Assembly: GCA_038256975.1 (NCBI GenBank)
Contig: JBBSJU010000002.1
Span: forward strand, 65,064-129,063
DNA length: 64,000 nt
Reading direction: 5' to 3'
From: Minisyncoccia bacterium
Lineage (GTDB): Bacteria > Patescibacteriota > Minisyncoccia > Phycocordibacterales > UBA5272
Both the position numbers and the translations under genes were made by a program. Under the pieces are notes generated by a model. That model was not told the DNA's origin and did not search any database. It worked only from the letters and a program-made list of their open reading frames with translations. Position 1 is the stretch's first letter. Each line of letters starts with the position of its first letter. Positions 5,222 to 59,755 of the stretch are shown here, piece after piece.

Positions 5222-5743
5222 TTACAATTGTGAATCTGTATAAGCATAAGACAGTTTGTTGTATTCATCTGTATGATAAGAGCAAATACCTTTATTATTC
5301 CAAAGTAAGAATTCAGAAATACCTACATCAAGTGCGAATCTGCTACACACGGTGCAATACGGCTCTCCTGACTTTTTTATATTTCCGTCCTTATCAACTC
5401 GAGTGAAATATAATTGAGAACCCTTTAAGTCTTCAGGATTTTTCTTTATTGCATCGAGAATAGCTCTCCATTCTGCGTGCATGCAACAGGTATGATCGTA
5501 TTTTGGTTTTCCTGGAAACTCATAAGTATCCAAGCATGTGCGATTATTCTCGTTATCAAGCGGAGGAGCATTATATCCTTCACCTATAATTTCTCCGTCT
5601 TTTACGATTACCGTTCCACACTTTGCTTTGAGACAAAGAGCTTTCTCGGCGACCTTAGCCGCCTCATTCATCCACTCGATCGCCTGTTCTTCTTCTGTGT
5701 TTTGCAAATATTTCATGGCAGTTTGAATCCCTTTATGGCTCAC
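5222..5743 (-). CDS. CMP/dCMP-type zinc deaminase (dCMP deaminase-like)
   Basis: HAEWRAI (H-x-E zinc/catalytic motif) and PCTVCS (PC-x-x-C) motifs. 173 aa. Confidence 0.7.
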   Translation of the reverse strand: MSHKGIQTAMKYLQNTEEEQAIEWMNEAAKVAEKALCLKAKCGTVIVKDGEIIGEGYNAPPLDNENNRTCLDTYEFPGKPKYDHTCCMHAEWRAILDAIKKNPEDLKGSQLYFTRVDKDGNIKKSGEPYCTVCSRFALDVGISEFLLWNNKGICSYHTDEYNKLSYAYTDSQL

Positions 5744-6454: not shown

Positions 6455-7033
6455 TTAACCAACCTGTCTGACCCAATCTCTGGTAATGCTTTCAATTCGC
6501 TCTTGCTCTAATTCAGGTAAGACGTTCGTATGCATGATGATGTTTCTTGAGAGCTCAAGATCATTAAATCTAGAGTTGACCCACGCTTGATCTGGGAAAA
6601 GATCAGAGAAATCTTCCCAGTTTCCAATTATTATCTGAGCCAGATTTCCGAACATAGTATAATAAATTAAAGATGAAGATGAAGACCTTTGCGTGTGGTA
6701 TTTATTTTTTGCTTCCTTTTCTTTTAAACCACTAGCTGCCTTTTTAACTCTTTCAGGAACACATAAATCCCACCAACCTAAACCTTGCCGCTCTGCTAGC
6801 CGAGTAGATATCAGTTCTCTGGCAGAGTTTTCCAAGCAGAAAAAGGCCACATATACTGACGCCATCTTTTCAGCATCATGGACCAGAACTGGATTAAAGT
6901 CATTTTCTTCAATTCTGGCTAACGGGCTAACATCAACATGTAAACCGATTCCCGTGTTTTCCAGCTTTTTCAACTCGTCTTGTGCTAGAAAACCATCGAA
7001 GACTAACCTTTTAAGGTGGCTTATTTTTTTCAT
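6455..7033 (-). CDS. HEPN-motif protein (R-x4-H near C-terminus); putative RNase toxin/abortive-infection effector
   Basis: 192 aa. The C-terminal helix carries LSRNIIMHTNV (R-x4-H), the HEPN catalytic signature. The start codon shares a nucleotide with the stop of the upstream partner at 7033. Confidence 0.5.
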   Translation of the reverse strand: MKKISHLKRLVFDGFLAQDELKKLENTGIGLHVDVSPLARIEENDFNPVLVHDAEKMASVYVAFFCLENSARELISTRLAERQGLGWWDLCVPERVKKAASGLKEKEAKNKYHTQRSSSSSLIYYTMFGNLAQIIIGNWEDFSDLFPDQAWVNSRFNDLELSRNIIMHTNVLPELEQERIESITRDWVRQVG

Positions 7034-7644
7034 TATTCCAATAAGTTATCTCTAATGCTTTTGAAGATAGAATTATAAACACTCACGTCCGTGGTAGCGG
7101 GTAAGTGAATCTGAATGTTGTAATGAAACTCTGCAGGAAGTCCAGAAACAACGAGTGGTTTTTCTTTTCGAATCCCTTCCTCGCTTTCTTTAAAGTCAGT
7201 TTTAATTTCTTTTGGTTGAGGAGAGTCACCAAATTTAGATAATCCAACAAGTGCTTTGAATGTATTGTAATACCGTCCAACAGTCGCCTCATCCTTACCT
7301 GTAATTCGAGAAAATGCCCCCTTTATCTCAACCTCTGATGCCTTATGGATTTCTTGGTCTGTTGCAAATAAATCTTTATATAAATCAATGACTCTTTCGC
7401 CCATTACGTATTGATGTTGAGAGGCATCTTTTAGCCGATCATACGAATCAGTGGGAGTTGCAGCTTCTGTTAGAAAACCTAGTTTCTTTAAAAGAGGAAT
7501 TATGGCTCTATCATTGGAACTACCAAACCCCATTTGCTTAAGAAACTCATTTGTATACTTTATTGGCCTAGCGGCAGCTTTTGCTTTCTGAAAAAAAGCA
7601 GGAAGTCTGTTATTGGAAATAACGTATGGATATGTGTCAGTCAT
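7033..7644 (-). CDS. partner of the HEPN-motif protein (hypothetical; possible antitoxin/sensor)
   Basis: 203-aa ORF that overlaps the downstream HEPN gene by one nucleotide. No known domain recognised. Confidence 0.45.
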   Translation of the reverse strand: MTDTYPYVISNNRLPAFFQKAKAAARPIKYTNEFLKQMGFGSSNDRAIIPLLKKLGFLTEAATPTDSYDRLKDASQHQYVMGERVIDLYKDLFATDQEIHKASEVEIKGAFSRITGKDEATVGRYYNTFKALVGLSKFGDSPQPKEIKTDFKESEEGIRKEKPLVVSGLPAEFHYNIQIHLPATTDVSVYNSIFKSIRDNLLE

Positions 7645-7892: not shown

Positions 7893-8618
7893 ATGAAATA
7901 CTTTAATGTAACCCAAGAAGAAATCGACTTGAGAATGTTCAATATTTTTGTTGGAATAAGTCTTGGTAACAAATTGCTAACTCCTGAACTTTGTAAACAT
8001 TATGTAGAGTGGGCACACAGAAATACAAAAGATAATTGCGTTATATTAATAGCTGATAAAATAGATGCCGTTAACTGGCAAATTTTTAGAGGGCTTTCTA
8101 GAGAAGAGTCTTTGGAGAAAGTAAAAGATAAAGGGTATGGAATTTTAGGCATGTTTGAAAAAGCAAAGAGAACTCTCGCCAAAGAAAAAGAAGATGCGAG
8201 CTACATTTCCAGGGTACATATTATATTTTGGGAAGATATAGTTAATGAAGGCTATACGGAACTCAGAAAAATATTAAATGATGAATACGAAAATAATTTA
8301 GAATTCAAAGAAAGAGTATTGTATTTTGTGAATAAATACTGCGAACTGAGAGATGTTAGTATTCTGTCAGCCGAAGATAAAGATAAGTTGGCTGGCTATA
8401 TTATTGATGAGTTACCGACGCTAATTGGTGGAATATATTGGGATGAAAAGTTGTATAACATGATATTGTATCCAACATACGTAGACAGCGGGATGAGTGA
8501 ATTTGTTTTAGATATTCGTGGTGGGAAATATTTTCATGCAGATAAATTAAAATTAAGACAAATCTGTGTTCTTGTTGAAGACTATCTAGAAAAACCTAAA
8601 ACTATTGAAAAAGAATAG
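7893..8618 (+). CDS. tRNA-dependent cyclodipeptide synthase (CDPS) homologue
   Basis: 241 aa. FNIFVGISLGNKL matches the CDPS Rossmann pocket motif (AlbC IGISAGN, YvmC VGISPFN; catalytic Ser in G-I-S). GYIIDELPTLIGG matches the catalytic Y-x-x-x-E-x-P block (AlbC NYVLAEAP, YvmC EYVIAELPFFIG). W-A...D-x-I...ID spacing resembles AlbC QWAGQRFERTDVVYVDTHID. Confidence 0.65.
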   Translation: MKYFNVTQEEIDLRMFNIFVGISLGNKLLTPELCKHYVEWAHRNTKDNCVILIADKIDAVNWQIFRGLSREESLEKVKDKGYGILGMFEKAKRTLAKEKEDASYISRVHIIFWEDIVNEGYTELRKILNDEYENNLEFKERVLYFVNKYCELRDVSILSAEDKDKLAGYIIDELPTLIGGIYWDEKLYNMILYPTYVDSGMSEFVLDIRGGKYFHADKLKLRQICVLVEDYLEKPKTIEKE

Positions 8619-10142: not shown

Positions 10143-10229
10143 GGAGGATTGGATGAGTGGTTTAAATCAGCGGTTTACTAAACCGCCGACGGGTAAAACT
10201 GTCCGTGAGTTCGAATCTCACATCCTCCG
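10143..10229 (+). tRNA. type-II (Ser-like) tRNA; a canonical 7-nt anticodon loop UUACUAA gives anticodon ACU
   Basis: GGAGGATTGGATGAGTGGTTTAAATC A GCGGT TTACTAA ACCGC, a 19-nt variable arm, GTGAG TTCGAAT CTCAC, ATCCTCC G. 7-bp acceptor, Ser-type D-loop (GAGUGGUU.AA), perfect T-arm. Confidence 0.7.
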
Positions 10230-10388
10230 CTCGTGTAAAAAAGCCCTAACAAGGGCATTTTTTATTGAGCGGAGGATAGAAAGTGCTTAATGCACTTTCG
10301 TGTGAGATTCGAAAAGCTTTCCGTTATTTGTGAGGAGCTTTACTCCGAACAAATCGGAAAGGTGTACTGCTCCTGTAAGGAGAGAAAT

Positions 10389-10403
10389 TCTCACATCCTC
10401 CGC
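10389..10403 (+). repeat. direct repeat of the tRNA 3' end (TCTCACATCCTCCGC), att-like, copy 2
   Basis: 15/15 identical to tRNA positions 10216-10230. Followed by CTAAGA, as in copy 3. Confidence 0.6.
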
Positions 10404-10468
10404 ACTAAGAACTTAGTATCGGCATGACCCTAGTACCTAAATTCGTAGATTTAAGTTAAAATTAAGCA

Positions 10469-10858
10469 ATGGAAAACCGAAGTTCACAAATTTGGATAGT
10501 ACTCATCGTTATCGCAATTATTGCAGGTGGTGCTTATTGGCTTGGAAATTCTCAAAATACCAACGACCAAACTATTGATGTAAAAACAGACATCTCTATT
10601 AAATCTACGACTGCACAGGTCGGTACTTTTTATGATGGCAAAGATGGTTACTCGCTTTCTATTCCAAGCGGAAATTCTTCAACATGTGTCTGGACGTATA
10701 CTGGAGGAAACGCAGCTATTCCATATTCAGAAACAACATATGCAAGAAGTGCGACTGAAAAACACACTATCTACTCTTATGATTACTACGATTGGAAAGT
10801 TTCTTGTGTAGACGATTTTGGAAATCAGTACACAGGTATATTCCCAAAGATCGAATAA
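10469..10858 (+). CDS. hypothetical secreted/membrane-anchored protein (within att-bounded islet)
   Basis: 129 aa with an N-terminal TM/signal helix (IWIVLIVIAIIAGGAYWLG). Thr/Tyr-rich. Confidence 0.4.
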   Translation: MENRSSQIWIVLIVIAIIAGGAYWLGNSQNTNDQTIDVKTDISIKSTTAQVGTFYDGKDGYSLSIPSGNSSTCVWTYTGGNAAIPYSETTYARSATEKHTIYSYDYYDWKVSCVDDFGNQYTGIFPKIE

Positions 10859-10866
10859 ATTATTTT

Positions 10867-11484
10867 ATGGAAAATAATACAGATGAAATAATCAATTTAA
10901 GCATTGAACAGTTTCAAGAATTTCACGAGAAATTAGGCTCAGAGAATTTCCAGCTCCAGTCTCGAATATTTGAAGATTACGGAAAAAAGAAATTGGATAT
11001 CTATTTTAAATCTATTGGGTTTACCACTGTCGTTATTGGTACAGCAGGACTTATTGCAGGATTCGGATTTACAGCAATCAGTCAAATTCAAAGCGAACTT
11101 CTCTTTTTTGTAGGAGAGGCCCTACTACTGAGTTCTATTTTCTATGGTCTATTCTGGATTCAAAACATATACCAAGGTGAATTTAGATCAATTGAGGAAG
11201 AAATAAAAAGACTCAGGGAGTTTTATGACAAAAGAAATGAAAAGTATATGGTTCTTTACAACGAGTGGATGTCGAAGAAAAGCATCACTAAAAACAATCT
11301 TAAGCAGCTTCAAGAGTTTGAAAACAAATCAATTGATTTGTTTAAGACTCCAACACAGGTTTCTGTTCCAGTCATTTACTCTCCCGTCATGTACGGTCTG
11401 ATGACGTTCGGTGCCGCGGCTCTCTTAGGTTCGTTCTTTATCTACAGTCTGTTATTCAACATTTGTCATCTCTTCTTTCTTTAA
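10867..11484 (+). CDS. hypothetical membrane protein (within att-bounded islet)
   Basis: ORF 10792..11484. ATG 10867 was chosen to avoid overlap. Two to three TM segments, with a coiled stretch between them. Confidence 0.4.
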   Translation: MENNTDEIINLSIEQFQEFHEKLGSENFQLQSRIFEDYGKKKLDIYFKSIGFTTVVIGTAGLIAGFGFTAISQIQSELLFFVGEALLLSSIFYGLFWIQNIYQGEFRSIEEEIKRLREFYDKRNEKYMVLYNEWMSKKSITKNNLKQLQEFENKSIDLFKTPTQVSVPVIYSPVMYGLMTFGAAALLGSFFIYSLLFNICHLFFL

Positions 11485-11746
11485 AGAAAGATATCCCGAC
11501 TCACATGCCTCAGCAAGACACTCCAAAAAGCGCTAGAATATCTTTATAAGGCTTGAGAGCGTGGGTACTGAACTCACATGGCCCGCCAAACCAAAATTCC
11601 ACACTTTCTTTAGGTGTGGAATTTTGTGTTTCAAGCGGTATGACGGCGAGATTCGAAAGCCGGACTGAAGCCACTATATGAGTAAAGCGAATTGTGGCGA
11701 AGGAGGCGGGGTCGCGCAAAATTTGTGAAGCAAATTTATGTGTGAC

Positions 11747-11767
11747 CGAATCTCACATCCTCCGCTC
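11747..11767 (+). repeat. direct repeat of the tRNA 3' end (CGAATCTCACATCCTCCGCTC), att-like, copy 3
   Basis: 21/21 identical to tRNA 10212-10232. It closes a roughly 1.35-kb segment that begins at copy 2. Confidence 0.6.
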
Positions 11768-11794: not shown

Positions 11795-12382
11795 TTAAGA
11801 AAGGGGTGCAAACAACTGCTTTAATTCTGTATATTTTGCAGGATCTAGTAGTGCCTCATAGAGATTTGGAATAATTTCTTTTTCCATAAACCTTCCATCT
11901 CTACCAATTTGAAGCATCTCGTCAAAACTAACGGGTTTTAGTTCAATCTTTTCTCCGCCATCGAGTGCTTGATCTGCAACTTTTCTGCAACCTTTTGCGA
12001 TAAAGAAGTAAACAACCCAATCAATCTTTGATGTAGGATGAGCTGCCTTCCAAAGTATGTATTCTTTTGCTTCGTATCCAGTTTCTTCGAGAAACTCACG
12101 TTTTGCAGCTTCCAAGATGTCTTCATTTTCTTCTACACGACCTCCACAAGCCCCAATGAAAGGTTTCTTTCCTGGTTGCTCTTGCTCAGTTAATAATATT
12201 TTTCCGTCATCAAGTACTGGAAACACGACTACCGTATCTGGTCGCTTGAGTTTTTCAAATATTTTTGTTGTTCCATCGTACATTAACTGTTGCCATTGGT
12301 AGACATCAAAGATTTTTCCTTTGTAGATACATTCTGCATGACCTGGAATCGGTTGGTTTGAGATTGGGCGTTGGATAGTCAT
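11795..12382 (-). CDS. NUDIX hydrolase (ADP-ribose pyrophosphatase-like)
   Basis: Nudix box GGRVEENEDILEAAKREFLEETG. Confidence 0.8.
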   Translation of the reverse strand: MTIQRPISNQPIPGHAECIYKGKIFDVYQWQQLMYDGTTKIFEKLKRPDTVVVFPVLDDGKILLTEQEQPGKKPFIGACGGRVEENEDILEAAKREFLEETGYEAKEYILWKAAHPTSKIDWVVYFFIAKGCRKVADQALDGGEKIELKPVSFDEMLQIGRDGRFMEKEIIPNLYEALLDPAKYTELKQLFAPLS

Positions 12383-12424: not shown

Positions 12425-13123
12425 TTAAGAACTTTTCTCTATCTCCTCAATTGACTTATTCCTGTGAATTATTTCATCGTTGCGAACTGAAAGGAAAAAT
12501 TCATACTGATTTTTTGGTTCACGTCCGTACCACTTCAAAAAGTCACTATGGATAGATTTGTTTTTAAGTTCATCGCCTCGTTTTTCTAAAAAGCGACTGT
12601 ATTGCTCAAAAGCATGACTTTCGAATAAGAAGTTAAGTTCATACGAGTACCGAGGGTTAATAACGTATAAAAAATATGACGCCCAAAAGTAAAAGAAGGC
12701 AAAAAGCATTGGGATAAGGGTGTGACGGATTATTCCTGCACATTCTTCTTTCTCTGCAAGCTTGGAAATGACGACCACGTGCATCGTCTCGTTATCCTGG
12801 GCTATTTGAGCAAATTGAGCCACATCTGATAGCTGGAGCGCCTTTTTCTCATGAGAGTAAAAAAGGGTTAAAAGAGTGTAAACAGACGAAGCCCAAGAAT
12901 GATAGGGCACACGAGCAATTACTTCAACCGAGCGAAACTTTAAATATGATGGTTCTTTTCCGTACACAAAATTTCCACACCACACAAGAAATTTTCCGAG
13001 TAAGAGCGGTAGCAGACTTGGTTGGTAAGAGTCGTAACTTGTTTTGTATTCTTTGAGGAAAGAATCATCATTAAGTTTTTGGTTGAGCACTTCAAGCTCT
13101 TCGTTGTTTCGCTGTAATTCCAT
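12425..13123 (-). CDS. alternative oxidase / plastoquinol terminal oxidase-like di-iron carboxylate protein
   Basis: Four-helix di-iron ligand pattern: EVIARVP (E), NETMH (E-x-x-H), FESHAFEQYSRFL (cf. AOX LEEEAIHSYTEFL), RNDEIIHRN (cf. AOX RADEAHHRDVNH). Confidence 0.5.
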   Translation of the reverse strand: MELQRNNEELEVLNQKLNDDSFLKEYKTSYDSYQPSLLPLLLGKFLVWCGNFVYGKEPSYLKFRSVEVIARVPYHSWASSVYTLLTLFYSHEKKALQLSDVAQFAQIAQDNETMHVVVISKLAEKEECAGIIRHTLIPMLFAFFYFWASYFLYVINPRYSYELNFLFESHAFEQYSRFLEKRGDELKNKSIHSDFLKWYGREPKNQYEFFLSVRNDEIIHRNKSIEEIEKSS

Positions 13124-26084: not shown

Positions 26085-26104
26085 GCCGGGGTGGCGAAAT
26101 TGGT
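26085..26104 (+). repeat. 20-nt duplicate of the tRNA-Leu 5' end (decayed tandem tRNA copy)
   Basis: GCCGGGGTGGCGAAATTGGT is identical to 26179-26198. The following 70 nt retain CACTTGCC..CAAG of an anticodon arm but cannot fold into a tRNA. Confidence 0.5.
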
Positions 26105-26178: not shown

Positions 26179-26260
26179 GCCGGGGTGGCGAAATTGGTAG
26201 ACGCACTTGCCTTAGGAGCAAGCGAGGTGACTCATGGAGGTTCAAGTCCTCTCCCCGGCA
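26179..26260 (+). tRNA. tRNA-Leu (anticodon TAG), type II
   Basis: GCCGGGGTGGCGAAATTGGTAGACGCACTTGC CTTAGGA GCAAG, long variable arm, GGAGG TTCAAGT CCTCT, CCCCGGC A. Confidence 0.85.
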
Positions 26261-26279
26261 CAAAAAATAAAAAACAAAA

Positions 26280-39432: not shown

Positions 39433-41850
39433 TTATCTTTTTCTGCGTGTACTTGCAGAATTAATAATGTCGATAACTTCATCAAGACTTATTGTCTCAA
39501 CATTCATGCTGTCAGGAATATAAATACGCTGCAAACCCTGCTTTACAAAGAATCCTGACTTTGAGTTCAAGATTTGAATTTCACGTTTTGTTTTTGGATG
39601 AATCCCAACAGTACGCACAAGTGTTGCACCTTTTGGCAATGCTTTAGGTGTGTTTAAAAGTACCACTGCTTGCTCAAGGGTTATGGTGTATGCATCGAGT
39701 GGTTTTTTGATAGATCTAAATTCTCGGTTACGTCCAACGTATGGCCCAAAGCGTCCGTTGTTTGCAATGATAGGTTCTCCTGTTTTTGGATCTGTGCCCA
39801 AATCGCGTGGAAGCTCAAGAAGTTTAATCGCCATTTCAGCAGTAAGATCTTCTGGCTTGAAACGCGGAGGAAGACTTGCTCGTTTTGGCGTAGGCACTAT
39901 TGGCGCTGCGACTTCATCTGCAACTTTCTTTTTCTTTCCTTTTACTTTTGGTTCTTTATTAGGACTTTTGCCAAGTTGCACGTATGGTCCAAAACGTCCC
40001 GTGAGAAGATAAATAGCTTCGCCTGTTTTTGAATCGAAAGCAAAAGGTTTTTCTTCACCAACTTCCTGACCATCAAGCGTCAGTGCGCCTGTACATTCTG
40101 GGTATCGAGAACAAGATAAAAATTTCCCACTTTTACCGAGCTTGATAACCATGTCACTTCCACAAATAGGGCATCGAATAGAAGCGTCTGCTTTTCCTAA
40201 ATCAGTTGCTTTGCCCGCACTCTTATCTTTCTCTTTTACATCTTTAAGAAATGGTTTGTAAAACTCTTCGAGAGTTTTTCTGTATGTGCGTGTGCCGTTT
40301 GCAATTTCGTCGAGCTCGTCTTCCATTTCTGCGGTAAATGAGTCGCTGATATATTTTCCAAAGTGTTCTTCAAGGAAACTACTCACTACATCGCCGGTGT
40401 CAGTGGGGAAGAGTGTTTTACCTTGTTTCTCCACATATCCACGTTCTTCGATGGTAGAGATGATAGATGCGTATGTAGAAGGTCGTCCAATACCACGCTT
40501 TTCAAGTTCTTTAACCAGTCCTGCTTCGGTATAACGGCTCGGTGGTTCTGTTTGTTTTTGTAACGATCGAAGTTCAAGAACTTTCAAAGCATCTTGTGCT
40601 TTGAGTGCGGGTAATTCAACATCTTCACCCTTACCATCTGGATCAGCAAGCAACCATCCTGGGAAAAGAGTAATCGAGCCGTTTACAGAAAAGTTTGGAA
40701 TAGTTTCTTTGCTTCCAACGACATTGGCTGAAATTTTTGTACGTAACACTTTTGCGTCACTCATTTGTGAAGCAAGTGTTCGTCCCCAAATGAGTCCGTA
40801 GAGTTCTTTTTCATCATCAGTTGCACCAGCATGCCCTACACTTGCATGTGTTGGCCGAATTGCCTCGTGGGCTTCCTGAGCATTTTTTGATTTTGTTTTG
40901 TATTGTCGAACTTCAAGATAGTCTTTGCCAAATTGTTTTGTAACAACGCTCGCTATTTCTGCAACTGCTTGGGCTGACATGTTGGTACTGTCGGTACGCA
41001 TGTAAGTAATGAAACCTTTTTCGTACAACTTTTGTGCTACGCCCATGGTACGTGATGGTGAGAATCCTAAACGTGAACTCGCTGCTTGTTGCAAAGTAGA
41101 TGTAGTAAATGGAGCCTTCGGACTTCGCTTTGCTTCGCTCTGGGACACGTCCACTACATTCCAATCGTGTGCGTTTCCAATATTAAGGATGCGGGCAACC
41201 TCATCTTTCGTTTTTGGTTCTTCGTCGCACGTAAGTGTGAGCTTTATTTTTTTTGCTGCAGTTGTTTCAAAGTCGCCATCGAGTACAAAGAAAATTTCAG
41301 GAATGAACGCGCGAATTTCTCGTTCTCGTTCCATGATGATACGCAGTGCAGGGGACTGCACTCGCCCAGCCGAAAGTCCATAACGTACTTTTTTCCAGAT
41401 AAGTCCAGAAAGGTCATAGCCCACCAATCTATCAAGAACACGACGCGCCTCCTGAGCTTCTTTCAAGTTCATGTCAATTGCGCGAGGATGCTTGATGGCT
41501 TCAAGCACTGCTTCTTTCGTGATCTCATTAAATGTCACACGTTCTGCGTCTTTCAGGTCGCAGGCTTCTTGTATGTGCCATGCAATCGCTTCGCCTTCTC
41601 GGTCGGGGTCGGTTGCTAAAAGCACTTGGGATGCCTTTTTTGCAAGCTTTTTTATTTCAGCAACTACCGCGTCTTTTCGAGGAGAAATCTCATATGTCGG
41701 AACAAAGCCAGCCTCAATATCAATAGCTTGCTTATTAGATTTAGGAAGATCCCGAACATGCCCAATGCTGGCACGTACGGTATATTCGCCATCGAGATAT
41801 TTTTCGATAGTCTTGGCTTTAGAGGGAGATTCTACAATTAAGAGCTTCAT
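39433..41850 (-). CDS. topA: DNA topoisomerase I
   Basis: Toprim N-terminus MKLLIVESPSKAKTIEKYL..., catalytic Tyr region, C-terminal zinc ribbons. Confidence 0.9.
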   Translation of the reverse strand: MKLLIVESPSKAKTIEKYLDGEYTVRASIGHVRDLPKSNKQAIDIEAGFVPTYEISPRKDAVVAEIKKLAKKASQVLLATDPDREGEAIAWHIQEACDLKDAERVTFNEITKEAVLEAIKHPRAIDMNLKEAQEARRVLDRLVGYDLSGLIWKKVRYGLSAGRVQSPALRIIMEREREIRAFIPEIFFVLDGDFETTAAKKIKLTLTCDEEPKTKDEVARILNIGNAHDWNVVDVSQSEAKRSPKAPFTTSTLQQAASSRLGFSPSRTMGVAQKLYEKGFITYMRTDSTNMSAQAVAEIASVVTKQFGKDYLEVRQYKTKSKNAQEAHEAIRPTHASVGHAGATDDEKELYGLIWGRTLASQMSDAKVLRTKISANVVGSKETIPNFSVNGSITLFPGWLLADPDGKGEDVELPALKAQDALKVLELRSLQKQTEPPSRYTEAGLVKELEKRGIGRPSTYASIISTIEERGYVEKQGKTLFPTDTGDVVSSFLEEHFGKYISDSFTAEMEDELDEIANGTRTYRKTLEEFYKPFLKDVKEKDKSAGKATDLGKADASIRCPICGSDMVIKLGKSGKFLSCSRYPECTGALTLDGQEVGEEKPFAFDSKTGEAIYLLTGRFGPYVQLGKSPNKEPKVKGKKKKVADEVAAPIVPTPKRASLPPRFKPEDLTAEMAIKLLELPRDLGTDPKTGEPIIANNGRFGPYVGRNREFRSIKKPLDAYTITLEQAVVLLNTPKALPKGATLVRTVGIHPKTKREIQILNSKSGFFVKQGLQRIYIPDSMNVETISLDEVIDIINSASTRRKR

Positions 41851-54428: not shown

Positions 54429-56381
54429 TTACTTTGAGTCAATAACACGAGCGTAATCAATAAGGCGCTCCTCGATATTTACCCCCTTGACCTGAATCTT
54501 CATTTCATCACCTAATTTAAAGATTTGTCCACTATTCTCTCCATAAATGAGGTCTTTCTTTTCATCATACATGTAAAAATCAGACCCAAGATCACGGAGC
54601 TTTATCATTCCCTCGCATTTTGTGGCAGAATCCTCAACGTAGATTCCCCATTGTGACACACCAGAGACAACCCCATTGAATGTCTGACCTATACGGACTG
54701 ACATATAGAGTACCTGCATGTATTTTACAGAACCTCGTTCAGCATCAGCAGCCTCTTTTTCTCGGAATGAACAATGTGCACAAAGTTCTTCGTAGAATTT
54801 TTTAGCCGAAGCTTGGGTACGTTCGCCTGCTAAATATACCGCAAGAAGTCGATGCGCCATAGTGTCTGGATAGCGACGAATGGGCGAAGTAAAGTGTGAG
54901 TAAAAATCAAATGCAAGCCCATAGTGACCGACATTATCGGTACTATATATCGCTTTCTGCATTGCTCGAGTTACATATACCTGCAAGAGTCCACCCTCTT
55001 TTGTTCCTTCAAGCGAAGAAAGAATTTTATTTATATCTTTTGATGGCACAAGGCCGTTGGTGAAATTAATAGGATGCCCGGCATTCCGTAAAATATTAGC
55101 AAGCTTGAGCATACGATCTTCGTCTGGCTCTGGATGGACGCGGTATATGAAAGTATGTTCTTGTGGGTTTGGAAGATTTGAAACGTATGTTGCAACACCT
55201 TTGTTTGCAGAGAGCATCCATTCTTCAATCATTTTATGTGTGTCACCGCGAACTTTTTTATAAACAGAAACAGGAAATCCTTTATCATCAAGTTTGAATT
55301 TCACCTCTTCTGTCTCAAGTGAAAGAGCTCCATTTTCAAAACGACGTTTTTGGATTTTTTTCGCTAAAACATTCAGCGTATTGAGTGCTTCATAATGAAG
55401 TCCACCGCCGGCATCTAAAATTTCCTGCGCTTCTTCATAGGAGAATCTTTTTTGAGAATGAATCACTGATCGCCCAAACCAGCTTCCCACCATTTCCGCA
55501 TTTTCATTTACCTCAAAGACTGCGCTAAACGTAAGACGATCTTTTCCTTCTACTAAACTACAAAGATTATTTGAGAGCACTTCAGGAAGCATGGGAATGA
55601 CACGGTCTACAAGATACACCGATGTTGCACGAAGTTTTGCTTCTTTATCGAGTGCAGTACCTTCGCGGACATAGTGGGACACGTCGGCGATATGAACTCC
55701 TACTTCATAATTTCCATTTGGAAGTTTTTGGAATGAAAGTGCATCGTCAAAGTCTTTTGCATCAAATGGGTCTATGGTGCAGGTCAGTACATTTCTAAAA
55801 TCTCTTCGATCCTTGAGGTCTTCTTCAGTGATACCTTTTTCTTCAATTTGTCGTGCTTCTTCCTCTACGTCTATAGGAAAACTAGTGTTAAAACCTCGCT
55901 CAAGCGCGTATGCCGAGACTTCAGCGTCGTTGTTGCCCGGTTTACCTAAGACAGTGTGTATTGCTCCCCACGGGCTTTTTTTAGAGTCAGTCCACTCAGT
56001 GATTTTTGCGAATACTTTTTGCCCCGCCTCCGCACCATTGAGCGCAGATTCTGGAATCATGATTTCCGTGTACATTTTTGCATCCTGGGCTTTTACAAAG
56101 TACACCCCTTTTTCTTTGAAAAGAGTCCCTGCAAAACCATGTTTGCTTCTACGAATAACCTCAAGTACTTCTCCGACAAATTGCCCAAACTTATTCTTAC
56201 CTGTTATTTTTACTCGTACTGCATCACCGTGAAGGGCTGTGTTGAGATCGTGTTGCGGTATTTCAACACTTTGTTCAAGGGTGAGCACTTTTACAAACCC
56301 AAAACCTTTTGTATTGATCCCAATTGTTCCTTCGAGTTCATCGCCGTATTGTGGAGTGATGAATGATTGTGTTTTGGCCAT
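54429..56381 (-). CDS. rnr: ribonuclease R / exoribonuclease II family (RNB + S1)
   Basis: Cold-shock-like N-terminus, RNB catalytic region (HYGLAFDFYSHFTSPIRRYPD), C-terminal S1. Confidence 0.85.
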   Translation of the reverse strand: MAKTQSFITPQYGDELEGTIGINTKGFGFVKVLTLEQSVEIPQHDLNTALHGDAVRVKITGKNKFGQFVGEVLEVIRRSKHGFAGTLFKEKGVYFVKAQDAKMYTEIMIPESALNGAEAGQKVFAKITEWTDSKKSPWGAIHTVLGKPGNNDAEVSAYALERGFNTSFPIDVEEEARQIEEKGITEEDLKDRRDFRNVLTCTIDPFDAKDFDDALSFQKLPNGNYEVGVHIADVSHYVREGTALDKEAKLRATSVYLVDRVIPMLPEVLSNNLCSLVEGKDRLTFSAVFEVNENAEMVGSWFGRSVIHSQKRFSYEEAQEILDAGGGLHYEALNTLNVLAKKIQKRRFENGALSLETEEVKFKLDDKGFPVSVYKKVRGDTHKMIEEWMLSANKGVATYVSNLPNPQEHTFIYRVHPEPDEDRMLKLANILRNAGHPINFTNGLVPSKDINKILSSLEGTKEGGLLQVYVTRAMQKAIYSTDNVGHYGLAFDFYSHFTSPIRRYPDTMAHRLLAVYLAGERTQASAKKFYEELCAHCSFREKEAADAERGSVKYMQVLYMSVRIGQTFNGVVSGVSQWGIYVEDSATKCEGMIKLRDLGSDFYMYDEKKDLIYGENSGQIFKLGDEMKIQVKGVNIEERLIDYARVIDSK

Positions 56382-57472: not shown

Positions 57473-59755
57473 CTATTTCGCGTATGCGTTTGCTTCGTCG
57501 AGTTTTACTGAAAGAATACGTGAAGATCCGTCAGCATCAAGGGTTACGCCATAGAGTGAGTGCGTGCGGGCCATTGTTTCTCGATTATGAGTGATCACAA
57601 TGAGTTTTGAATGTGCACTGAGCTCATTTAACACTGCGCCGTATTTCTTAGCGTTTGACTCATCAAGTGCGGCATCTGTTTCATCGAGAATCAAAAATGG
57701 TGGCGGATTTACCTGAGAAAGTGCAAAGAGAAGTGCAATTGAGGCGAGCGCCCTTTCTCCACCGGAGAGCATGGCAATATCTTTCACTTTTTTATGAGGA
57801 AGCGACACAGTCACATCAATGCCAGTTTCTGTTTCCTTTTCTGCATCATCTACATCTTCTTCCGTGTCAGATTTTCTTTGACGTTTTTCTTTCTCAATCA
57901 AATCAAGCTTTGCTTCCCCGCCTCCAAACATAGTGTGGAAGAATTTTTGGAAATGATTGTTAATAGTTGCGAGACCTGTTTCAAATTGTGTCGCCAGAGT
58001 TGTGCGGAGTTCCTCCATGACTTGCTCTAGTTTTTCTTTACTTGTTTCAAGGTCTCGGATTTCGTTTGATAAAAATTCATCACGCCCACTTACTGATTCA
58101 TATTCTTTTGTCACCTCGTCAACATTCACGAAGCCAATGTCTTCAATGCGAAGTTTGAGACGTTCGATCTTTTTTCGGTGTTCGTCTTGTGTGTGAGGGT
58201 CAAAAGGGGTAAGGGTGGTGTTTTTGTATTGTAAAACAGATGCTCCAATGAGTACGGACGCTTCGGCAAGCTCAGCTTCAAAGCGTTCTTTTCGTTCGCG
58301 GAGCTGGGTTATTTTGAGCTCTGTAAGAGAAAGTTTTCCTTGGAGTTCTGCTTGTAGACGTTCAAGTTCAAAAACTCGACGTTCGTCTACGAAAGCATTT
58401 TCTTTGTACGAATCTTTTGCTTCCTCTGCTTGTTTCTTTTGTGCGAGTGCTTTTTCAAGCTCATGCGTGATACGTGTTTGGTCTTCAGTGGCCACACGTA
58501 AGTCTTCTTTGAGTTTTTGGACGGAAAGAAGTAGTTCCTTAGTGTCTACTTTTTGAACAGCAGATTGTGTATGTGGAGCATTCTCTAAGAAAGACTCAAA
58601 AGAATGAAGACGTGCTTTGAGTAAGTTGAAAAGCGCAGGAAGCTCTTGAAACTCTTTGTGTTCATAACGCCAAATAACCTTTTCGTGTATTTCTTTAATA
58701 GATGAAGCAAATTCCGCAACTTCTTTTTTTGAAACGTGCCCATCTTCGCTCAGTTGTATTTTCTCCGCTTCCCCACTGTGTGTTTTTTCGATATTTTTTT
58801 CTAAAATACGAAGCTCTGTTTCAAGCGAAATAACAGAACGAATAATGATATTTTTTTCCTGTTCATATTTTCTAATTGCTTCCTCAGCCCGAACTAAGTT
58901 CGTAGTTATTTCTGTTGGAAGCGCTACCTGTTTTTTGTTCGTATGTTCGGTGATTTCTTGAGTGATTTTTCCGAGCTCTTTTTTAAGACCCTCAAATGTG
59001 TGCGGCTCTTTAGACTCTAGATCATGAATATACGCTTCTTCTTGTGCGAGATAGGTGTGATAGAGACCCGAAAGCTCACTCCGAAGCTCTGTCCCCTTTT
59101 GAACTTTATCAATTTGTTTTTTGAGAAATTGTACGTGCGGGGCTATTTCACGGCGACTTATTTGTGCCTCGCGCATGTTTTCAAGAACTGTCGCAAGCTT
59201 TTTTTCGCTTTCTTTGAGACGCCACTCGTAGATACGCAGACCAAGCGCGTCCTGAACCATTTCCTTACGCTCTTTTACCGATGAGTGCAGTACCCTGTCG
59301 GCTTCGCCTTGAGAAATAATGTGGTGATGGGATGTGCCAATGTTGTTATGTGCAAGGAGTTCCTGAATGTCCTTCAAGCGCACTTTCGTACCATTGATTG
59401 AGTAGTCGTTTGTTCCATCAGCAAATATTTCTCGCCCGAGCACTATTTCAGGAAAAGATGCATAGGTAGAATCGTTTGTGTCTTGAGCATTATTTTTGAA
59501 GGTAAGATCGACTCTCGCGCGTGACATCTGCCCTAGACCTTTAGAGCCTTTAAAGATGAGGTCACTGCCTGTTTTTCCACGCATTGATTTAACTGATTGC
59601 TCGCCAAGTACAAACCGAAATGCTTCAGCAACGTTTGATTTACCCGATCCGTTTGGACCCACGATTCCTGTCACCGAACTATCAATACGAAATGTCGTTT
59701 TTTTTGCAAACGATTTAAATCCAGTGAGTTCTATTTTCGTGAGTTCCATGATCAA
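57473..59755 (-). CDS. SMC-family chromosome segregation ATPase, short form (760 aa, no evident hinge)
   Basis: N-terminal Walker A GPNGSGKSN, long coiled-coil middle, C-terminal LSGGERALASIALLFAL, and LILDETDAALD. Confidence 0.7.
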   Translation of the reverse strand: MIMELTKIELTGFKSFAKKTTFRIDSSVTGIVGPNGSGKSNVAEAFRFVLGEQSVKSMRGKTGSDLIFKGSKGLGQMSRARVDLTFKNNAQDTNDSTYASFPEIVLGREIFADGTNDYSINGTKVRLKDIQELLAHNNIGTSHHHIISQGEADRVLHSSVKERKEMVQDALGLRIYEWRLKESEKKLATVLENMREAQISRREIAPHVQFLKKQIDKVQKGTELRSELSGLYHTYLAQEEAYIHDLESKEPHTFEGLKKELGKITQEITEHTNKKQVALPTEITTNLVRAEEAIRKYEQEKNIIIRSVISLETELRILEKNIEKTHSGEAEKIQLSEDGHVSKKEVAEFASSIKEIHEKVIWRYEHKEFQELPALFNLLKARLHSFESFLENAPHTQSAVQKVDTKELLLSVQKLKEDLRVATEDQTRITHELEKALAQKKQAEEAKDSYKENAFVDERRVFELERLQAELQGKLSLTELKITQLRERKERFEAELAEASVLIGASVLQYKNTTLTPFDPHTQDEHRKKIERLKLRIEDIGFVNVDEVTKEYESVSGRDEFLSNEIRDLETSKEKLEQVMEELRTTLATQFETGLATINNHFQKFFHTMFGGGEAKLDLIEKEKRQRKSDTEEDVDDAEKETETGIDVTVSLPHKKVKDIAMLSGGERALASIALLFALSQVNPPPFLILDETDAALDESNAKKYGAVLNELSAHSKLIVITHNRETMARTHSLYGVTLDADGSSRILSVKLDEANAYAK

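Follow-up and report, generated by a model that had tools for sequence, protein, structure and literature searches.

Introduction

In Prochlorococcus, tycheposons are associated with cargo arrays that contain partial tRNA repeats. Islands and prophages inserted by tyrosine integrases into tRNA and transfer-messenger RNA (tmRNA) genes, tandem arrays included, are exemplified by the ssrA-linked islands of Dehalococcoides (PMC3146451). Here we compare with them a locus in a 64,000-nucleotide (nt) stretch of a Minisyncoccia bacterium (GCA_038256975.1, contig JBBSJU010000002.1, positions 65,064 to 129,063; hereafter the window, whose first letter is position 1), where the 3' end of a serine tRNA gene with anticodon ACT, tRNA-Ser(ACT), is copied twice downstream. 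Our results indicate that the two copies belong to two small units without open reading frames (ORFs), which lie on either side of a two-gene cassette. The outer one, unit 2, has been confirmed as belonging to a large family that is recognized by its core and has at least 116 members, which follow almost every tRNA type and have arms matching the adjacent tRNA; the inner one, unit 1, is built around another core, of which few copies are known. Like tRNA islands, such units lie 3' of a tRNA gene and, by carrying a copy of its 3' end, keep that gene intact; their direct repeats start in the T-loop, and they accumulate serially at one tRNA. Unlike tRNA islands, they measure 110-270 nt, contain no ORF and have no integrase nearby; they add an antisense copy of the tail and a core with RNA-type covariation, and one core family serves nearly all tRNA types.

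Other described systems share parts of this plan. Integrase-less satellites such as cis-mobilizable elements (CIMEs) have att-like flanks, lack a recombination module of their own and accumulate beside tRNA genes, a description that fits the two-gene cassette quite well; however, no cognate autonomous element for the same tRNA tail was found in our searches, and the small units are not deletion derivatives as far as the data show. Miniature inverted-repeat transposable elements (MITEs) and REP doublets forming hairpins (REPINs) are, like the units, small, ORF-less, hairpin-forming, multi-copy and intergenic, and sometimes stand in tandem. In contrast to them, the arms of the units copy the neighboring tRNA rather than a fixed family sequence, one arm at the same time provides the gene with its functional 3' end, conservation lies in the interior rather than at the ends, and there is neither an ordinary target-site duplication nor a transposase. 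The integron attC site and the CTX-phi attP(+) hairpin are comparable in that inverted site copies pair within one strand and rebuild a duplex mimicking the chromosomal target, and in that a strand-specific structure is conserved above sequence; yet the units have no R'/R'' boxes (GTTRRRY; RYYYAAC / GTTRRRY), no intI and no dif-like site, they hold an extra three-way-junction core, and their ends are derived from tRNA.

Two further comparisons concern RNA mimicry and homing. The tRNA-like domain of tmRNA, YrlA, mascRNA and viral tRNA-like structures share with the units a coaxial minihelix of acceptor and T-arm, an extra domain at the 7/49 junction and a CCA that is sometimes encoded. However, the units have a large conserved domain in place of the T-loop, their mimicry follows the neighboring tRNA instead of one amino-acid identity, and no Rfam family matches. 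Free-standing GIY-YIG homing-endonuclease genes occur in the same organisms as 310-353-nt inserts that duplicate the 5' end of a tRNA gene, and ORF-less versions of 70-180 nt stand beside them, so that an autonomous/miniature pair is plausible. These inserts differ from the units in occupying the opposite side of the tRNA, the window has no such ORF, and the link to the 3' units consists of co-occurrence (seven of the 120 loci listed) and a similar small hairpin.

Results

The tRNA tail and its copies

Outward from the tRNA gene, the locus consists of unit 1 (10231-10405, ~170 nt; 10264-10405 in a narrower delimitation), the cassette (about 10406-11588) and unit 2 (11589-11767, ~180 nt). Neither unit contains an ORF. 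The parts of the host gene and of the two units are as follows, all on the plus strand.

10143-10230: tRNA-Ser, anticodon ACT, with a long variable arm; the host gene (ARAGORN; Infernal with the Rfam tRNA model, 54.1 bits).
10237-10263: terminator-like hairpin (A-run, GCCCT/AGGGC stem, T-run), the center of a long palindrome of tRNA 3' end and antisense arm (inverted repeat 10222-10247 / 10252-10277).
10267-10277: antisense arm a of unit 1, GAGCGGAGGAT, reverse complement of the acceptor 3' strand, the discriminator and CTC, and a mimic of the acceptor 5' strand (11/11 complementarity).
10278-10299: hairpin H1 of unit 1, exactly at the acceptor/T-stem junction of the antisense arm (from the sequence).
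10300-10313: antisense arm b of unit 1, GTGTGAGATTCGAA, reverse complement of the T-loop and the T-stem 3' strand (inverted repeat, 13/13).
10314-10388: core of unit 1, type B, with a long hairpin AGCTTTCCG...CGGAAAGG, TGTACTG and a small hairpin CTCCTGTAAGGAG (motifs also in L019, L228 and L213; relatives in L021).
10389-10405: direct repeat 1, TCTCACATCCTCCGCAC, the sense arm closing unit 1, followed by TAAGA (exact 14-mer and repeat search).
11561-11588: tRNA-like 3' end with CCA, GTGGGTACTGAACTCACATGGCCCGCCA, where the conserved cassette ends on the right (64% identical to the tRNA end; homology to L084, L085 and L086 stops at 11586-11588).
11592-11626: terminator-like hairpin opening unit 2 (13-nt arms, 100% complementary).
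11646-11758: core of unit 2, type A, a three-way junction whose helix P1 joins GAGAUUCG (within 11648-11657) to CGAAUCUC (covariance model R2, see below).
11745-11767: direct repeat 2, CCGAATCTCACATCCTCCGCTC, which closes unit 2 as its sense arm, followed by TAAGA and the stop of a convergent NUDIX gene (exact 14-mer and repeat search).

The repeated stretch comprises the last ~21 nt of tRNA-Ser(ACT), from T-loop position 57 to the discriminator, plus CTC. Its 14-mer CTCACATCCTCCGC occurs exactly at 10217, 10390 and 11752 and at no other site in the 64 kb, even with two mismatches allowed; the shuffle expectation is 0.21 matches, and three matches were reached in 0 of 100 shuffles. A preliminary description of this DNA had noted that the tRNA 3' end recurs directly at two downstream sites, and these repeats are indeed tRNA-derived, direct, non-random and specific to the locus. 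The distal copy (11740-11767) is 89% identical to the tRNA over 28 nt and the proximal one (10378-10405) 71% over the same length, and CTAAGA comes after both. The inverted, hairpin-interrupted fragment of the tRNA end that had been reported in the first segment is likewise real by complementarity: GAGCGGAGGAT and TGTGAGATTCGAA (10301-10313) together form the reverse complement of the tRNA 3' end and are separated by the 22-nt hairpin H1, although the fragment starts at 10267 and not at 10268. A tRNA-like fragment given earlier as lying near 11662 also exists, but at 11648-11657 (GAGATTCGAA), and the CCA-terminated end at 11561-11588, the fourth tRNA-like 3' end of the locus, was absent from that description.

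Both units follow one plan: a tRNA or tRNA-like 3' end, a terminator-like hairpin, an antisense arm, an interior of ~75-95 nt, and a sense copy that starts in the T-loop. The antisense arm copies the T-loop and the T-stem 3' strand, in unit 1 the acceptor strand too, and is interrupted by a small hairpin in unit 1 and in about a third of family members, whereas the sense arm runs from T-loop position 57 through the tRNA end. The tRNA-proximal copy, terminator hairpin and antisense arm make up one long palindrome, and the tRNA gene stays intact and terminated; in the predicted fold, the 3' half of the tRNA pairs with 10267-10313 (z = -11.4). Spacing from start to start is 173 nt between the tRNA end and repeat 1, and 179 nt between the pseudo-end at 11561-11588 and repeat 2. 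Unit 2 follows that pseudo-end, but its arms GAGATTCGAA and CCGAATCTCACATCCTCCGCTC match tRNA-Ser(ACT), 1.4 kb upstream, instead. The 158-bp segment is no decayed islet, as had been suggested, but a complete example of a small-unit architecture that recurs elsewhere. The distal repeat is not simply an attR closing a 1.35-kb island; it forms the 3' arm of unit 2, a high-scoring member of a large covarying family. The inverted fragments are a defining part of the units rather than debris.

Recurrence behind other tRNA genes

Comparison loci are given below by their L numbers. A first sample comprised 1.35 Mb of Patescibacteria loci, fetched originally for another purpose, with 96 tRNAs. For eight of these 96 (Ser, Cys, Trp, Leu and His), the final 16 nt of the tRNA recur with no more than two mismatches, in seven cases as a direct copy 98-269 nt downstream and in one as an inverted copy 37 nt downstream (L021), and all eight show the hairpin and the antisense copy. 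In the unbiased genome sample, the fraction of tRNAs with a unit is 8/70 (~11%). The preliminary description named a generic repeat family scattered over unrelated loci as a finding that would refute its reading: as sequence the repeats are unique to this locus and do not refute it, whereas as architecture they do recur in this way.

The interiors fall into three types. Type A reads ...TCGAAAG-S-CGGA, hairpin, YGAG-G-S'-Y-GGGGTCGCG, hairpin, YGTGACC, then directly GA and the remainder of the T-loop; in unit 2 the core contains, besides P1, AAAG-CC-GGA, a variable hairpin, GAGGCGGGGUCGCG, a second variable hairpin and UGUGACC. Type C (L084, L019) has its left half in common with type A. Type B, represented by unit 1, L019, L228 and L213, with relatives in L021, reads TCGAAA, a long hairpin RGCTTTYC...GRAAAGG, YRTACTG and a small hairpin. 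Membership of type B is based on the motifs TCGAAARRCTTTYC...GRAAAGG-YRTACTG-hairpin common to the window, L019, L228 and L213; L213 and L021 have the same plan of arms, and 9 of 13 predicted pairs show compensatory changes across five sequences.

A pattern scan of metagenome contigs for type A returned at least 120 matches, and the figures out of 120 or 85 in this text are counts among the matches listed. In 85 of 120, a same-strand tRNA ends 25-93 nt upstream (Arg, Leu, Val, Trp, Ala, Glu, Ser, Tyr, Met, Pro, Lys, Gly, Asn, Asp, Phe or Thr). The T-stem mimic has at most one mismatch to the adjacent tRNA in 70 of these 85 units among the matches listed, a full sense copy (T-stem and acceptor strand) is found in 51, and an acceptor mimic in 28. 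Where the acceptor mimic is present, a small hairpin, often with a AACTGCTT apex, stands exactly between it and the T-stem mimic, at the position of H1. In an actual tRNA, the D and anticodon arms branch off at this acceptor/T-stem junction. Among units that have an acceptor mimic, about a third show a palindrome that extends through the discriminator and 6 nt of the genomic trailer; since it runs into trailer bases, the antisense arm is the partner of the genomic tRNA-proximal copy and not of the mature tRNA. We also considered the antisense arm as a primer-binding site of a retro-element and rejected the idea, as the arm complements the genomic trailer, not CCA, where the gene has no CCA. 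A role of the units as leaders or riboswitches was dismissed as well: among the matches listed, downstream genes are co-directional in 58 cases and convergent in 34, and they are functionally unrelated.

A covarying three-way junction

Two covariance models were built, R1 from a seed of 30 sequences and R2 from 116 metagenome sequences with the window excluded. R2 assigns 68.5 bits (E 1.7e-21) to the core of unit 2 at 11646-11758, and the next match in the window has 13.9 bits. With R1, 13 matches were obtained in the genome loci (1.33 Mb), among them the type C units of L084 (53 bits) and L019 (50 bits), and 116 matches in 0.55 Mb of metagenome loci.

The predicted fold consists of a closing helix P1, formed by the T-stem mimic and part of the T-loop, a 3-bp helix, a variable hairpin and a long helix P3. 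RNAalifold predicts 33 pairs for the 30 sequences, 21 of them compensatory; the S/S' position of the 3-bp helix covaries (C-G in 19 sequences, G-C in 10). The lower seven pairs of P3 (GGUCGCG/YGUGACC) are invariant, including a G.U pair in 30/30 seed sequences, and the upper part covaries freely. In the set of 116 sequences, 92.3% of cells are paired, against 69.1% when partners are shuffled and at most 44% when partners are slid, and 32 of the 33 pairs have changed on both sides; since these sequences were aligned by fitting them to the model, more weight goes to the controls with slid or shuffled partners than to the raw pairing percentage. The covariation score is 0.507 against 0.150 in the control, and 0 of 500 shuffles reach the observed value. 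The G.U pair remains near-invariant in the larger set (97/112), and on the opposite strand it would be a C.A mismatch, which argues that the folded strand is the tRNA-sense strand, as RNA or as single-stranded DNA. The core thus covaries on the tRNA-sense strand.

No Rfam 15 family overlaps the units, either in the window at E up to 10, where the tRNA alone passes, or in 16 other loci at E up to 1. Hammerhead-type motifs were also looked for in the units by eye alongside this search and were discarded as candidates. In the open-access papers and preprints searched, also for the invariant 12-mer, we found no description of such units. A possible UCA in unit 2's variable hairpin suggested a loop resembling an anticodon; the loop has 5 nt and is not conserved, and the idea was dropped.

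Indications of turnover and spread

Cores at least 80% identical sit behind different tRNAs. A single-linkage cluster of 22 unites units of Arg, Glu, Lys, Leu, Trp, Ser and Val tRNAs, and a second cluster joins Ala, Arg and Glu; on contig L247, the Trp and Thr units have an unusually long P3 in common and an 82% identical core, but different arms. Tandem copies at 77-94% identity are frequent in the family, as are truncated copies, extra hairpins inside the sense arm and unmatched arms, and in the Cys, Leu, Lys, Leu cluster of L224 a unit stands behind each of the four tRNAs. Of 38 units with a full sense copy behind a gene that encodes no CCA, eight have a CCA at the end of the distal copy; genes that do encode CCA are matched by a distal copy with CCA in every case (4/4), and the reverse was never seen. 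Though the numbers are small, this asymmetry fits a distal copy that is the displaced original end and a proximal one supplied by the insert. The proportion of encoded CCA in unit-bearing and unit-free tRNAs (19% vs 26%) is uninformative.

The locus itself is variable. In a related species (L006), tRNA-Ser(ACT) recurs together with a NUDIX gene of 81% identity; three other genes lie between the two, 3' repeats are absent, and no other flank is in common. The look of the locus as serial insertion beside a tRNA 3' end, proposed in the preliminary description, is supported by this difference in content and by the homologues of a cassette gene behind tRNA-Ser genes, to which we now turn.

The cassette and its boundaries

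Four further features lie between unit 1 and the right flank of unit 2.

10417-10436, plus strand: trailer motif TATCGGCATGACCCTAGTAC (also in L085 at 19-38, in L329/L330, with L329 at 5376-5395, and in L021, minus strand, at 8174-8220).
10469-10858, plus strand: cassette gene 1, a hypothetical protein of 129 amino acids (aa) with a hydrophobic N-terminus (ORF list; no Pfam family; 82-85% nucleotide identity in L084-L086).
10867-11484, plus strand: cassette gene 2, a hypothetical protein of 205 aa (29 homologues, all from Patescibacteria where the source names them).
11795-12382, minus strand: NUDIX gene, convergent, adjoining unit 2 (ORF list and Pfam).

Three Logan contigs (L084, L085 and L086), at 82-85% nucleotide identity, align to window positions 10408-11588 only, and the homology ends exactly behind the tRNA-like end GTGGGTACTGAACTCACATGGCCCGCCA and ahead of unit 2. 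Beyond this boundary, L086 has unrelated genes, L084 a unit of ~170 nt with another core, and the window its type A unit. In every long context obtained, from three distant Patescibacteria, homologues of gene 2 lie 0.2-1.6 kb downstream of a co-directional tRNA-Ser: tRNA-Ser(GCT) is 1.6 kb upstream in L087, tRNA-Ser(GGA) 0.6 kb upstream in L329, where a diverged tRNA-Ser-like tail follows 25 nt past the stop, and tRNA-Ser(TGA) 0.2 kb upstream in L331, with a 125-nt unit and a tail repeat in between. The cassette is either a tRNA-Ser-targeting integrase-less module or an old neighbor of tRNA-Ser genes.

The trailer motif has the form TATCGG-(3-4 nt or hairpin)-GACCC[GT]AGT[AG]C and occurs 9-12 nt past a tRNA-Ser 3' end or a repeat in four lineages; a role as trailer, promoter or small RNA is conceivable. 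In L329, it follows directly behind an intact tRNA-Ser, which is the nearest thing to an empty site for unit 1.

The NUDIX gene was tried as a synteny anchor and abandoned, with 0 of 80 homologous loci having a common neighbor gene, even at 87% identity; none of the genes of the 5.8-11.8 kb tract, which the preliminary description proposed as one accessory region bounded by the tRNA-Ser(CGA)/tRNA-Glu pair, accompanies NUDIX homologues elsewhere (80 loci). In several loci (L054, L058, L012 and L026), the NUDIX homologue adjoins a unit-bearing tRNA, and judging from its genomic surroundings the gene may itself be mobile cargo. Exact-protein look-ups gave no match for TfoX, and for NUDIX just a 1-kb contig identical to the window.

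Search for a mobilizing enzyme

The absence of an integrase stated in the preliminary description holds for the 50 window ORFs that were scanned against Pfam, none of which has an integrase, resolvase or transposase domain, with three long ORFs (39433-41850, 54429-56381 and 57473-59755) and most ORFs below 150 aa lying outside the scan. When the ORFs within 4 kb of the 120 listed metagenome units were clustered, the result was housekeeping genes, and neither a recombinase nor TnpB nor a reverse transcriptase recurred. Among 2.9 million viral contigs, the tail 19-mer matched just two phage tRNA-Ser genes within phage tRNA arrays, with no attP-like copy, and the type-A motif was found in 0 contigs. 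A loose pattern, GGGGTCGCG..CGTGACC, was set aside, because its 120 listed matches in viral contigs were all chance matches in high-GC phages, and two specific patterns gave none. Neither this 19-mer search nor the 120 listed loci revealed an autonomous element using the same att site.

The most recurrent neighbor of the units (seven of 120 loci listed) is a GIY-YIG nuclease of 84-94 aa directly upstream of the tRNA. Such 5' inserts of 310-353 nt are found in L273 (541-937), L229 (401-797), L278 (8612-9018), L217 (1373-1678) and L028. Their ORF (PF01541, E 3e-13 to 1e-15) runs into the tRNA 5' end, they duplicate 12-35 nt of that end, and several share their tRNA with a type-A 3' unit. In the window, the first 20 nt of tRNA-Leu(TAG) (26179-26261) are copied at 26085-26104 (GCCGGGGTGGCGAAATTGGT), with a 74-nt insert holding two hairpins between the copy and the gene, a 5'-side counterpart of the 3'-side units. 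Similar 5' inserts of 68-184 nt are present in L006, L054, L058, L074 and L233; the one at tRNA-Ser(ACT) of L006 measures 112 nt and holds a hairpin with a AACTGCTT loop. The GIY-YIG inserts may be autonomous relatives of these miniature 5' inserts.

Discussion

We lean towards reading the locus as a stack of serial insertions, in which miniature elements mimicking the tRNA tail and a cassette came to lie on the 3' side of tRNA-Ser(ACU). The architecture, the arms that track the adjacent tRNA, the similar cores behind different tRNAs and the tandem arrays are observed directly. The sense and antisense copies of the tail pair and enclose the conserved core, the three-way junction in the case of unit 2, and we propose that the units would be selfish, non-autonomous insertion elements. 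They might enter by Campbell-type recombination within the shared 20-50-nt tRNA tail, starting from a small excised form; such tail recombination would reproduce every junction seen, including the fixed GTGACC/G57 joint and the repeats that sometimes reach the terminator. If insertions pile up beside the tRNA, the most distal unit would be the oldest. An old type-A unit would then have stood directly behind the tRNA, the cassette would have entered between the two, bringing its own CCA-ended tail, and unit 1 would have entered last. This order is suggested because the arms of unit 2 match tRNA-Ser(ACU) and not the adjacent pseudo-end. The mover could be an enzyme encoded elsewhere or the host's own machinery, and the core might act as RNA or as folded single-stranded DNA.

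Several points weigh against serial insertion by such elements. No mobilizing enzyme was found in the 50 window ORFs scanned or recurrently near the 120 listed units, and tail recombination leaves the matching of both arms to a new tRNA unexplained. Gene conversion of cores among old, vertically inherited units could also produce similar cores behind different tRNAs. Unit 2 needs an extra assumption, the later insertion of the cassette, as the end adjacent to it (11561-11588) is a different one. The terminator-like hairpin between the tRNA and many units argues against simple co-transcription. Moreover, the strong covariation and the ~30 invariant positions, unpaired or in helices, suggest a selected molecular function that purely selfish DNA does not explain. 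Among truly close relatives we found no pair of empty and filled sites, and we infer insertion from the architecture and the patchy distribution. Lastly, type B, to which unit 1 belongs, rests on just five to six sequences.

The best-surviving alternative, which we regard as rather unlikely, is that the units are immobile host genes for non-coding RNAs or tRNA trailers, transcribed together with the tRNA or right behind it. A mimic of the acceptor/T-arm minihelix joined to a core would be processed by RNase P, RNase Z and the CCA-adding enzyme to serve a function linked to tRNA, while selection would keep the arms matched and gene conversion would homogenize the cores inside a genome. It would account well for a structure on the tRNA-sense strand with strong covariation and ~30 invariant positions, and for the place of H1 exactly where the D and anticodon arms leave a real tRNA. 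Some units moreover have no terminator behind the tRNA but one past the sense copy (tRNA-Cys of L224), the sense copy often ends in an encoded CCA, and no mobility gene was found near the units at the 120 listed loci. However, just ~11% of tRNAs (8/70) have a unit, and which tRNA carries it varies between genomes. Decayed, truncated, tandem and hairpin-interrupted copies are common, which looks like turnover rather than a maintained gene; in many cases a strong bidirectional terminator separates the tRNA from the unit, and the antisense arm complements the genomic trailer instead of the mature tRNA end.

It is improbable, in our view, that the copies are attL and attR sites of serial tyrosine-integrase elements that have since decayed, or of satellites moved by an integrase encoded elsewhere, even though the repeats are direct and start in the T-loop. 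The T-loop is a known crossover sublocation for tRNA-targeting integrases. Consistent with this classical explanation, the content between tRNA-Ser(ACT) and NUDIX differs in L006, and the cassette recurs behind tRNA-Ser genes of different anticodons, with a tRNA-Ser-like end 25 nt past the last gene in L329; for the cassette alone, an att reading is reasonable. For the units it meets several difficulties. The supposed 158-bp islet is a complete copy of a recurrent architecture, and the distal repeat belongs to a 113-nt covarying three-way-junction element whose near-invariant G.U pair is not expected of integrase arm sites. No integrase is encoded by the 50 window ORFs scanned or recurs near the 120 listed members, and 2.9 million viral contigs contain no attP-like copy of either the 19-mer or the core motifs. 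Finally, similar cores with different tRNA specificities would require many integrase specificities. That the copies reflect chance similarity or the decay of tandemly duplicated tRNA-Ser genes into pseudogene fragments is highly improbable: the copies are short (15-28 nt) and partial tRNA genes are common in prokaryotic genomes, but the three exact 14-mers far exceed the 0.21 expected, ARAGORN and Infernal detect no remnants of a tRNA 5' end or body before the copies, and a plan with an antisense copy and conserved cores recurs behind many tRNAs.

Returning to serial insertion, we put forward tentatively, as a possibility that we would not yet call likely, that the units represent an undescribed class of tiny, ORF-less, structure-based mobile elements homing to tRNA genes. 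A three-way-junction RNA of ~100 nt, possibly catalytic or serving as the handle of a trans-acting enzyme, would be enclosed in a hairpin that copies the tRNA tail, with the antisense arm as a re-writable guide, and one core lineage could thereby colonize any tRNA gene. Together with the 5' inserts, tRNA genes would then be the main landing pads for selfish DNA and cassettes in Patescibacteria.

If the units are what they seem, roughly one in ten tRNA genes of a very large bacterial radiation is accompanied by a structured element that lacks annotation and duplicates the tRNA tail, and such duplicates will confuse both the annotation of tRNA fragments and island callers based on att repeats. 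In its pattern of conservation the core resembles a functional RNA or a folded single-stranded DNA, and it matches no Rfam 15 family. The presence of one core lineage behind different tRNAs, with arms matching each time, raises the testable question of how a gene-less element of 150 nt re-targets. The units may also help explain the exchange of cassettes at tRNA genes in small, recombinase-poor genomes.

The host tRNA and the genomic context

The window is a chromosomal stretch of a Patescibacterium, with FtsZ/FtsA, MurB, TsaD, HisRS, GatB and DnaB among the genes recognized by the Pfam scan, and the relatives of its proteins are found in metagenome-assembled genomes of the Paceibacteria/Nomurabacteria type. 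The A34 anticodon ACT is very unusual for a tRNA-Ser in a split codon box; among 280 tRNAs scanned, the single other A34 anticodon is that of Arg(ACG). The gene is also present in L006 (9323-9412, minus strand), where the anticodon stem has a compensatory change, and a normal tRNA-Ser(GCT) was found 235 nt away; the ACT form is kept beside tRNA-Ser(GCT) in two species. Because of this conservation with a compensatory stem change, and with the normal isoacceptor nearby, tRNA-Ser(ACT) looks like a conserved extra isoacceptor rather than an error.

Between the tRNA-Ser(CGA)/tRNA-Glu pair and tRNA-Ser(ACT) lies an apparently variable tract, in which a Swt1-like HEPN protein (PF18731) and a DUF5343 protein (PF17278) are encoded by adjoining, overlapping genes (6455-7644, minus strand) that look like a toxin-antitoxin or defense pair. 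For an ORF of 241 aa (7893-8618), the resemblance to cyclodipeptide synthase (PF16715) is weak and stays below threshold, at 24.9 bits where the cut-off is 27. Cyclodipeptide synthases consume aminoacyl-tRNAs, and one would be unexpected in a Patescibacterium. Beyond the NUDIX gene, an ORF of 232 aa (12425-13123, minus strand) matches the alternative oxidase family (PF01786, E 3e-11), and such a gene is unusual among these bacteria.

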